In this document: positions 11,262 through 13,532 of the stretch, piece by piece | How the letters are laid out: every line of letters starts with the position of its first letter | Position numbering within the stretch: the stretch's first letter is position 1 | DNA from: Escherichia coli | GTDB taxonomy: Bacteria; Pseudomonadota; Gammaproteobacteria; Enterobacterales; Enterobacteriaceae | Strand: one strand, 5' to 3' | Length of the DNA stretch: 64,000 nt | Assembly: GCF_024298765.1 (NCBI RefSeq) | Contig: NZ_CP101210.1 | The notes under the pieces: generated by a model | What the model was told of the DNA's origin: nothing | What the model saw: the letters and a program-made list of their open reading frames with translations, nothing else | Databases searched by the model: none | Program-made: the position numbers and the translations under genes

Positions 11262-12278
11262 ATGTCCACATTACGCCTGCTCATCTCTGACTCTTACGAC
11301 CCGTGGTTTAACCTGGCGGTGGAGGAGTGTATTTTTCGCCAGATGCCCGCCACGCAGCGCGTTCTGTTTCTCTGGCGCAATGCCGACACGGTAGTGATTG
11401 GTCGCGCGCAGAACCCGTGGAAAGAGTGTAATACCCGGCGGATGGAAGAAGATAACGTCCGCCTGGCGCGGCGCAGTAGCGGTGGCGGCGCGGTGTTCCA
11501 CGATCTCGGCAATACCTGCTTTACCTTTATGGCTGGCAAGCCGGAGTACGATAAAACCATCTCCACGTCGATTGTGCTCAATGCTCTGAACGCGCTCGGC
11601 GTCAGCGCCGAAGCGTCCGGACGTAACGATCTGGTGGTGAAAACCGCCGAAGGCGACCGCAAAGTCTCAGGCTCAGCCTATCGCGAAACCAAAGATCGCG
11701 GCTTCCATCACGGCACCTTGCTACTCAATGCCGACCTTAGCCGCCTGGCAAACTATCTCAATCCGGATAAAAAGAAACTGGCGGCGAAAGGCATTACCTC
11801 AGTGCGTTCCCGTGTGACCAATCTGACCGAATTGCTGCCGGGGATCACCCATGAGCAGATTTGCGAGGCCATAACCGAGGCCTTTTTCGCCCATTATGGC
11901 GAGCGCGTGGAAGCGGAAATCATCTCCCCGGACAAAACGCCAGACTTGCCAAACTTCGCCGAAACCTTTGCCCGCCAGAGTAGCTGGGAATGGAACTTCG
12001 GTCAGGCTCCGGCATTCTCGCATCTGCTGGATGAACGCTTTACCTGGGGCGGCGTGGAACTGCATTTCGACGTTGAAAAAGGCCATATCACCCGCGCCCA
12101 GGTGTTTACCGACAGCCTCAACCCCGCGCCGCTGGAAGCCCTCGCCGGGCGACTGCAAGGCTGTCTGTACCGCGCGGATATGCTGCAACAGGAGTGCGAA
12201 GCGCTGCTGGTTGACTTCCCGGAACAGGAAAAAGAGCTACGGGAGTTGTCAGCGTGGATGGCAGGGGCGGTAAGGTAA
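11262..12278 (+). CDS. lplA: lipoate-protein ligase A
   Basis: 338 aa beginning [22 protein letters not shown]. Confidence 0.95.
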
Positions 12279-12309
12279 CTCGCTGATTAAAATATCCAGG
12301 GAAGGAAAT

Positions 12310-12573
12310 ATGATCGATCTGGAAAACCAGGAACGGGAGATTATCAATTTAATGTTCAGCCAGGGTATATCCTGGCTAACCGCCGTGCGTATCAGGCATA
12401 AATTATCGCTTGCTGAAGTAAGTAAAATGTTAGGTATCTCCATTAATTCTCTAAAACAGATCGAAAAGACGGAACGGCTTAGTTCAAACATCAAAAGCAA
12501 AATGGCAGGAATTTATGGTTGTCCACCAGAGTTGCTGATATGCCCTTCCTGGATGACGGCTGAACATAAATGA
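12310..12573 (+). CDS. small HTH-domain protein, 87 aa (function unknown)
   Basis: AAGGAA Shine-Dalgarno 5 nt upstream; HTH-like LSLAEVSKMLGISINSLKQIEK; AT-rich; sits where K-12 has yjjJ. Confidence 0.45.
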   Translation: MIDLENQEREIINLMFSQGISWLTAVRIRHKLSLAEVSKMLGISINSLKQIEKTERLSSNIKSKMAGIYGCPPELLICPSWMTAEHK

Positions 12574-12670
12574 ATAGATTCGTGAATAGATACTTGAATG
12601 GATTTTATTTTCTATCCATATGAAAAATAATAGTAAATCTATAAATCAGTTGCTATTGATGAATAGATAC
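12571..12670. repeat. three direct copies of TGAATAGAT (12571, 12583, 12660) downstream of the small HTH ORF
   Basis: read directly from sequence. Confidence 0.5.
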
Positions 12671-12671
12671 T

Positions 12672-12700
12672 AAAAAGCCGGAGCAGTCTCCCGCTCCGGC
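12672..12700 (-). terminator. intrinsic terminator after deoD
   Basis: gccggagc...gctccggc hairpin followed by a T-run on the minus strand. Confidence 0.7.
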
Positions 12701-12733
12701 TTCACAAGGCAATCGCCTTTCAGCAAAACACAA

Positions 12734-13453
12734 TTACTCTTTATCGCCCAACAGAACGGATTCCAGTGCGATTTTGATCATGTCGTTGAAGGTGGTCTGA
12801 CGCTCAGCGGCAGTGGTCTGCTCGTGAGTGCGGATGTGGTCAGACACGGTGCAGATGGTCAGGGCTTTCGCGCCAAATTCTGCAGCGACGCCGTAGATGC
12901 CAGCGGCTTCCATTTCCACGCCGAGGATGCCGTATTTTTCCATCACGTCGAACATTTCGCCGTCCGGAGAGTAGAACAGGTCAGCGGAGAACAGGTTACC
13001 AACGCGAGCATCAACGCCCAGTGCTTTAGCCGCGTCTACCGCGTTACGCACCATGTCGAAGTCAGCGATAGCGGCAAAGTCATGGTCTTTAAAACGGATG
13101 CGGTTAACTTTGGAATCGGTGCAGGCACCCATACCGATAACGACGTCGCGCAGTTTTACGTGCGGCAGAACAGCGCCACAGGAACCAACGCGGATAATTT
13201 TCTTCACGCCGAAATCGGTGATCAGTTCTTTGGTGTAGATGGAGCAGGACGGGATACCCATACCGTGGCCCATTACGGAAATTTTGCGGCCTTTGTAAGT
13301 ACCGGTGAAGCCCAGCATACCGCGAACGTTGTTCACTTCACGGGCATCTTCAAGGAAAGTTTCAGCAATATACTTCGCACGCAGCGGGTCGCCTGGCATC
13401 AAAACTACGTCAGCGAAATCGCCCATTTCTGCATTAATGTGTGGGGTAGCCAT
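12734..13453 (-). CDS. deoD: purine nucleoside phosphorylase DeoD
   Basis: 239 aa, [28 protein letters not shown]. Confidence 0.95.
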
Positions 13454-13478
13454 TGTTTTATCCTTATCAACATGTTTT

Positions 13479-13514
13479 CACCCTCTCCCTGTGGGAGAGG
13501 GCCGGGGTGAGGGC
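13479..13514. repeat. GC-rich palindromic intergenic element
   Basis: ccctctccc tgt gggagaggg ccggggtgaggg between deoB and deoD; family name uncertain. Confidence 0.4.
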
Positions 13515-13532
13515 ATCAAGCCGCACCCATTA

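Follow-up and report, generated by a model that had tools for sequence, protein, structure and literature searches.

The DNA analysed here is a stretch of 64,000 nucleotides from Escherichia coli (NCBI RefSeq assembly GCF_024298765.1, contig NZ_CP101210.1; hereafter the window), and the subject is its lplA-deoD interval, where K-12 carries yjjJ (hipH), the gene for a HipA-family toxin kinase. In the window, this interval holds an 87-aa helix-turn-helix (HTH) open reading frame (ORF) and several copies of the 9-mer TGAATAGAT. We consider it likely that this is a hipH locus whose kinase gene has been replaced, and that the repeats, here termed HipH boxes, are an orphaned candidate HipH operator standing beside the replacement gene. 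In ~75% of complete E. coli genomes, the window strain included, ~290 bp of AT-rich DNA stand in place of the hipH coding sequence, and the TGAATAGAT repeats are the 5′ control region that hipH left behind and do not belong to the new gene.

The hipH coding sequence is exchanged for AT-rich DNA

The converging genes lplA and deoD are separated by 455 bp (12279-12733) with a G+C content of 37-40%, compared with 52-62% in the flanks and ~52% in yjjJ. This agreed with the initial annotation, which had described an AT-rich interval of ~450 bp and had placed a yjjJ of ~1.3 kb there in K-12. In K-12 derivatives, a 1332-bp yjjJ (hipH in NC_000913.3) occupies the interval on the deoD strand, i.e. the minus strand of the window, and its stop codon adjoins that of lplA. 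Alignment with K-12, which the initial annotation had put forward as a check, showed that the interval is not identical in the two alleles. Window positions 12565-12733 align with the K-12 deoD-yjjJ spacer, and the deoD terminator, one distal repeat, three tandem repeats and the CAT corresponding to the minus-strand ATG of hipH are all kept, the repeats at the same positions relative to the ATG, which the tandem array immediately precedes in K-12. All sequence from the hipH ATG to the lplA stop differs between the alleles. The exchanged segment begins with the second hipH codon and extends to the stop codon of lplA, and the new ORF lies on the opposite strand. Within the retained part, the window differs from the K-12 hipH promoter region in a single mismatch in the third box and in the 56 nt between the distal and tandem repeats, which are unrelated and could not be aligned. 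A search for a donor lineage, comparing the window spacer with those of hipH-bearing species, returned no spacer above 66% identity.

No hipH sequence was recognised past the ATG. BLASTP of the 87-aa ORF against YjjJ gave no match, and a HipH profile hidden Markov model (HMM), built from 54 HipH homologues, detected nothing in the six frames of 12279-12620 (E > 1), with the positive control from Buttiauxella noackiae scoring E = 3e-14. Both alleles are widespread in E. coli. Out of 5426 complete genomes, 4057 carried the small-HTH interval and 1348 carried yjjJ, always as one copy, so that the two sets combined account for 5405. The PGAP label of the ORF was ‘helix-turn-helix domain-containing protein’ in every match listed or fetched. 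For the window strain, this is a routine gene replacement, i.e. ordinary genome decay.

The order deoD-hipH-lplA was found in Salmonella, Citrobacter, Kluyvera, Cedecea, Buttiauxella, Kosakonia and Pluralibacter, and deoD-hipH in Erwinia. As this synteny is conserved across the Enterobacteriaceae and Erwiniaceae, hipH and its boxes are ancestral, the allele with the small ORF being the derived state. The hipH allele is present in E. albertii. The small-ORF protein occurs in E. marmotae and cryptic Escherichia lineages, and the alleles fetched via those clusters lie in the lplA-deoD slot. Boxes left without hipH were found in at least five other Enterobacterales lineages, demonstrating repeated hipH loss. 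This included Serratia plymuthica (L045), Enterobacteriaceae UBA2655 (L071) and Pantoea sp. RIT-PI-b (L073), which have distal and tandem boxes, no hipH, and ytjB next to them on the opposite strand; these are independent hipH losses that left the boxes in place. In Enterobacteriaceae bacterium RIT691 (L056, minus strand), a 217-aa DUF2238 membrane-protein gene begins at oriented position 2031 with its ATG directly after the last box, and this is a second case of hipH replacement exactly at the start codon. Other disruptions were also seen. Truncations of hipH keeping the N-terminal HTH part occur in E. coli WB61 (H72, NZ_CP020025.1 673702-673826, annotated ‘transcriptional regulator’) and Buttiauxella noackiae (L119 10239-10432), the latter being another lineage in which the boxes have outlasted hipH, and in E. 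coli TB354 (L003 3217-3675) an IS200C is inserted between the proximal boxes and deoD, parting the distal part of the spacer from yjjJ.

The HipH boxes and their link to hipH

Exact plus-strand copies of TGAATAGAT lie at 12571-12579, 12583-12591 and 12660-12668 and nowhere else in the window. The initial annotation had reported three copies starting at the ORF stop; to these a fourth is added, the one-mismatch copy TGAATGGAT at 12595-12603, so that 12571-12603 forms a three-copy tandem array with a 12-bp period. By arithmetic, ~0.5 exact copies of the 9-mer are expected in 64 kb on both strands, and three within 100 bp are therefore not attributable to chance. On the minus strand the box reads ATCTATTCA. 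We defined a HipH-box array as two or more ATCTATTCA at a 12-bp period, the last within ~30 nt of an ATG, with a distal copy ~65 bp upstream. The minus strand of the window carries such an array with no hipH homologue downstream, and since only a 27-codon ORF unrelated to HipH follows it, the array is orphaned (Table 1). The allele-specific spacer also contains two degenerate inverted box-like sequences, ATCTATAAA and TCTATCCAT (12637-12645 and 12611-12619, respectively), the first of which forms an imperfect inverted repeat (I11) with the distal box; this could be chance in AT-rich DNA.

Table 1 Features of the lplA-deoD interval in the window.
Feature	Coordinates	Strand	Remarks
lplA	11262..12278	+	Left flank of the replaced segment
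Shine-Dalgarno-like GGAAGGA	12300..12306	+	3 nt ahead of the 87-aa ORF ATG, 22 nt after the lplA stop
87-aa ORF (hth87)	12310..12573	+	XRE/Cro-C1-type HTH (predicted); RefSeq WP_000566145.1 ‘helix-turn-helix domain-containing protein’
Vestigial hipH start	ATG 12567-12565; 27-codon ORF 12484..12567	-	Antisense to the 3′ end of the 87-aa ORF; no HipH similarity
Three proximal HipH boxes	12571..12603	-	ATCCATTCA-agt-ATCTATTCA-cga-ATCTATTCA; starts at -36 (one mismatch), -24 and -12 from the vestigial ATG
Spacer, distal to proximal boxes	12604..12659	-	56 nt; length conserved, sequence not; promoter location in hipH-bearing genomes
Distal HipH box	12660..12668	-	ATCTATTCA; -101 from the vestigial ATG, 65 bp upstream of the first proximal box
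deoD intrinsic terminator	12670..12702	-	GC-rich hairpin 12675-12702, then UUUUU (T-run 12670-12674); distal box directly next
deoD	12734..13453	-	Right flank

To place the array in a wider context, one genome per species was scanned with the pattern TGAATAGATNNNTGAATAGAT. At least 120 loci were found, compared with a chance expectation of ~9 (18 fixed bases, 2 x 298 Gb; arithmetic). Among the matches listed, a HipH-HMM match lay immediately downstream, on the strand reading ATCTATTCA, in 72/120 loci, and no divergently oriented HipH-HMM match occurred in any of the 120. The array-linked HipH homologues listed were 33-95% identical to K-12 YjjJ (median 37%), and their taxa comprised Enterobacterales, Xanthomonadales/Lysobacterales, Burkholderiales, Neisseriales, Rhodocyclales and Geomonas. 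Because this set had been selected by its repeats, we also examined five hipH loci picked by protein similarity only, from Salmonella enterica, Kosakonia cowanii, Pluralibacter gergoviae (variant arrangement), Erwinia tasmaniensis and Klebsiella sp. RIT-PI-d. Boxes were present in all five, at -12/-24/-36 and -99 to -101 from the ATG. Across 79 hipH-type regions, three tandem boxes were found in 26 and two in 52, and in 32 a distal box, which lies outside the search pattern, preceded the first tandem box by 65-66 bp. The last box typically ends 0-5 nt before the hipH start codon, and a Shine-Dalgarno sequence is absent. Neither the 9-mer repeat nor a link between it and HipH was described in the literature searched, where a text search of 7.7 million papers for the motif gave only primers and short hairpin RNAs (shRNAs).

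A few scan matches were of another kind. An identical ~110-nt stretch that ends in ATCTATTCAcatATCTATTCA and is followed after 19 nt by a 354-aa ORF (235 aa in L010) recurs in five contigs of a Verrucomicrobiaceae metagenome-assembled genome (MAG concoct.366; L008-L012) and resembles a multi-copy element unrelated to hipH. Longer arrays of 12-mer units (ATCTATTCA/ATCCATTCA plus 3 nt) without hipH nearby occur in a Methanosarcinaceae MAG (STD2_68, L049 1-50) and a Proteobacteria MAG (L124).

We propose that in hipH-bearing genomes the boxes would be the operator, with a winged-HTH N-terminus of HipH binding the tandem boxes and so repressing hipH. These tandem boxes would lie over or after the -10/+1 region and take up the short leader that lacks a Shine-Dalgarno sequence, and the distal box would aid cooperative binding. 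The putative, near-invariant recognition helix of HipH, SQxTxSR, has S25, Q26, S30 and R31 invariant in homologues of 27-75% identity. In the AlphaFold2 (AF2) model, the HipH N-terminus has three helices followed by a beta-hairpin (predicted local distance difference test, pLDDT, 89.5). A winged HTH is predicted from this order of secondary-structure elements only; Foldseek with the 118-aa N-terminal model gave a best E of 0.49 and one ArsR-type match at probability 0.69. No sequence relative of YjjJ was found in the PDB, and Pfam recognises only HipA_C in YjjJ, the HTH not being modelled.

The position of the boxes is of the repressor type, as the tandem boxes lie on or just downstream of the -10/+1 region in every promoter placement. 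Three such placements exist and they differ. The Enterobacterales share a motif, CTTTAC-17-TATAA, adjoining the first proximal box. Systematic evolution of ligands by exponential enrichment (SELEX) with RpoD holoenzyme led to TTTTCA-18-TCTATT being proposed in K-12, with the -10 inside box 1 and H-NS binding marked too (PMC3946193). In Reg-Seq, transcription was taken to start at a computed site 53 bp before the yjjJ ATG (PMC7567609). In the same study, two repressor sites were reported in the K-12 yjjJ promoter, one of which, at +30..+45, was given without a named protein (Ireland et al. 2020, PMC7567609, supplementary files 5 and 13). This site is TCTATTCACGAATCTA, i.e. box 2 plus the start of box 3, where the mutagenised segment ends. 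In addition, control of hipH by cyclic di-GMP (c-di-GMP) has been located at its promoter (eLife study, PMC11452175).

In the window, where this type of genome would lack hipH altogether, the boxes would be an orphan relic in the 3′ flank of the small gene. That gene would probably be read through from lplA, dispensable and weakly constrained, making no use of the boxes.

The 87-aa HTH ORF

The small ORF starts 31 nt past the lplA stop, and its own TGA stop is the first 3 nt of the nearest box. As a scan found no terminator-like site between lplA and the ORF, co-transcription of the two is plausible. The initial description of an 87-aa HTH ORF with a good Shine-Dalgarno sequence held (Table 1): the protein scores 25.2 bits against Pfam HTH_3 (PF01381; gathering threshold 23). 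Its AF2 model (mean pLDDT 86.5) is all-helical, a five-helix XRE-type fold with an extra N-terminal helix (residues 4-18). The best Foldseek matches were CylR2, C.BclI, P22 c2, SinR and 434 Cro, all XRE-type repressors (probability 1.0; template modelling (TM) score 0.55-0.76 normalised to target; E only about 0.02). On these models the 87-aa protein is an XRE-type HTH domain with predicted DNA binding. The BLASTP comparison suggested in the initial annotation gave no match to YjjJ; relatives of the HTH_3/XRE type were found.

The family is very small. HMMER over 1.8 billion representatives recovered Escherichia/Shigella sequences, one singleton of 43% identity (P0081) and generic HTH proteins, with nothing else. 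P0081 is equal in length to the 87-aa protein and also sits between lplA and deoD, with boxes absent; it falls below the HTH_3 threshold (20.6 bits) and as a query recovered only itself, leaving the family no wider. A second candidate, P0036 (71% identity), was discarded as a divergent orthologue. Its source contigs (L127 4001-4264 and L128 3709-3972, from Logan assemblies SRR18740011 and SRR13921544) have nearly all C read as T across lplA, the ORF and deoD; this protein cluster is spurious because the contigs are bisulfite-converted E. coli reads, gene-called after assembly. NCBIfam has no named family for the 87-aa protein.

The closest annotated relatives are the C-terminal HTH domains of ~120-aa regulators (tblastn, 30-37% identity over residues 3-77, 85% of the query, E 2e-6 to 1e-4). 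In 3/3 contexts examined, Pasteurella phage Pmp14 (XYO02381.1), phage PPyecE_EH1910 (BCI50128.1) and a Leclercia plasmid (WP_225988006.1), the regulator gene lies directly downstream of a ParE-family toxin gene. These ParE/RelE-linked HTH antitoxins share with the 87-aa protein the HTH_3 domain and an IY(G/N)C.PE.L tail. They differ in having a ~55-aa N-terminal RelB-like part, whereas in the alignment the 87-aa protein begins at the start of the HTH domain. The homology of the DNA-binding domain to antitoxins was evident, and no ParE/RelE-like ORF lies next to the 87-aa ORF, its neighbours being lplA and deoD. Judged by sequence, the most fitting description of the protein is a solo HTH domain of the antitoxin type that stems from mobile elements (phages, plasmids). 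The generic XRE/Cro-C1 repressors (CylR2, C.BclI, P22 c2, the SinR N-domain and 434 Cro) have the same predicted fold; unlike them, the 87-aa family has the extra N-terminal helix and comprises only Escherichia and Shigella plus the singleton contig.

Constraint on the ORF is weak. Its ratio of nonsynonymous to synonymous polymorphism (pN/pS) is 0.18-0.49, compared with 0.02-0.10 for lplA and deoD, and the ORF is broken by an internal stop in strains D6 and EH53 and by a frameshift in S1-CAM-04-C. Several ‘plasmid’ records holding the lplA-deoD locus are 0.4-4.9 Mb and are evidently chromosomes or fragments filed in PLSDB as plasmids.

Simple consensus promoter and terminator scans gave nothing useful for either allele, and the deoD terminator was confirmed via folding (-25.3 kcal/mol, z = -5.0); its hairpin is also listed as inverted repeat I12. 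No Rfam family matched across 12100-12900 at E up to 1. The deoB-deoD spacer (window ~13454-13532) is 79 bp here and in strain 104 versus 56 bp in K-12, the extra sequence being a GC-rich palindromic stretch, ccctctccctgtgggagagggccggggtgaggg.

Competing explanations and known systems

Several observations weigh against the boxes being an orphaned HipH operator. Chromatin immunoprecipitation with exonuclease digestion (ChIP-exo) on K-12 with myc-tagged YjjJ yielded not a single DNA binding site (PMC8464067), for which low expression, the tag or the growth conditions could account. Reg-Seq assigned the adjacent site (-24..+18) to MarA and no protein to +30..+45 (PMC7567609). As the latter site is transcribed, an effect at the level of the mRNA is possible. 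Neither allele has a consensus sigma-70 promoter by simple scan, and the three placements given above differ. The 87-aa ORF is known from sequence alone, with the three inactivated strains on record. Finally, in the most divergent small-HTH allele (L145), 0/30 nt of the boxes have changed compared with 13/55 nt of the spacer (Fisher p = 0.003), a contrast which hints that orphan boxes may still be constrained.

The overall signal on this last point is mixed. Across 11 alleles, four point changes were counted in the boxes, and 12-bp units were deleted on two independent occasions. The cassette as a whole is, in most comparisons, younger than the sequence flanking it, with the pS of the ORF about half that of lplA and deoD, so low diversity within it does not count as evidence of constraint. 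We lean towards the orphan boxes being a relic, with a minority chance of residual function.

Residual function is central to the competing explanation that survives best, although we regard it as unlikely: that some conserved host factor distinct from HipH, or in E. coli H-NS or MarA, binds the boxes, which would still function where hipH is missing, for instance to drive or silence antisense transcription over the small ORF. The negative YjjJ ChIP-exo result would fit, as would the in vitro binding of H-NS and RpoD holoenzyme to the K-12 deoD-yjjJ spacer (PMC3946193), the naming of MarA for the adjacent site, the persistence of boxes without hipH in at least five other Enterobacterales lineages, the RIT691 DUF2238 gene right after its boxes, and the intact L145 boxes beside a diverged spacer. 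However, hipH is the only gene consistently linked to boxes across classes, in a single orientation, among the matches listed; the HipH recognition helix is as conserved as the 9-mer; and in other alleles, from E. coli and of the E. marmotae type, orphan boxes show substitutions and have lost whole units.

A more far-reaching form of the idea, which we hold to be decidedly improbable, makes the array a portable control platform that outlives hipH, still bound in hipH-less E. coli by a trans-acting factor, possibly the 87-aa HTH protein or an unlinked one, and reused for incoming genes. Its examples would be the RIT691 DUF2238 gene and an antisense transcript over the small ORF in the window. 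If true, the exact-ATG replacement in two lineages would reflect selection for the array edge or a recombination mechanism acting at it.

We give little credence to the boxes acting as RNA, i.e. as a repeated AU-rich leader setting the translation or stability of hipH mRNA rather than as a DNA operator. Most loci have no more than 0-5 nt between the last box and the start codon, with no Shine-Dalgarno sequence, and the Reg-Seq ‘repressor’ site is within the transcribed region, both as such a leader would have it. The distal box, at a fixed 65-66 bp, is upstream of every proposed promoter and would escape transcription, no Rfam family matched, and the co-conserved protein feature is a DNA-binding helix.

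The initial annotation offered as one option a different small regulator with its own binding sites. The first half stood, in that an XRE-type HTH gene replaces yjjJ; the second did not, since the repeats belong to hipH and are common to K-12. That the small protein nevertheless binds the TGAATAGAT repeats as its own operators, for autoregulation or control of a neighbour, seems very doubtful. The repeats begin at the ORF stop codon and are perfectly kept in L145. However, hipH-linked boxes occur across the Proteobacteria and are therefore older than the arrival of the ORF at this locus; the orthologue P0081, also in the lplA-deoD slot, lacks boxes; the boxes are downstream of the ORF and not at a promoter for it; and several strains with an inactivated ORF retain them. 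XRE dimers, moreover, usually recognise inverted repeats, not 12-bp direct repeats.

The other option, that the ORF is the N-terminal HTH left of yjjJ after deletion of its kinase part, can be set aside with near certainty: yjjJ does occupy this place in K-12, and genuine remnants of the hipH N-terminus are seen in other strains (Buttiauxella noackiae, E. coli WB61), but this ORF lies on the plus strand and yjjJ on the minus, the BLASTP and six-frame HMM searches were blank, the G+C content is that of the AT-rich interval and not of yjjJ, and the modelled fold classes differ (five-helix XRE versus HipH winged HTH).

An orphaned HipH operator beside a replacement gene remains our preferred reading. 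As far as the searched literature shows, a conserved candidate HipH operator matching the Reg-Seq repressor site that has no named protein is new. From enterobacteria to Burkholderiales and Geomonas, ATCTATTCA stands in a fixed arrangement (-12/-24/-36 and ~-101) before hipH and is much more strongly conserved than the kinase. What DNA the HipH HTH recognises, and how a HipA-family toxin that is monocistronic and has no antitoxin is restrained, are stated open questions (PMC8262856). The box array offers a concrete sequence to three lines of work: the target and restraint of HipH (PMC8262856), the c-di-GMP response (PMC11452175) and the Reg-Seq site (PMC7567609). The ~75% of complete E. coli genomes with the small-HTH allele are natural hipH-minus, box-plus backgrounds.

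Among the closest known systems is hipBA, whose autoregulation involves the binding of HipB, an XRE-type HTH protein, and HipA2B2 to palindromic operators (PMC8262856). The two loci are alike in encoding a toxin kinase of the HipA family and in having several operator copies over the promoter, and autorepression is the expected logic. The hipH sites differ in being 9-bp direct repeats with a 12-bp period, compared with the palindromes of hipBA. Their presumed binder also differs, being a predicted winged HTH fused to the kinase, whereas hipBA uses the separate HipB.

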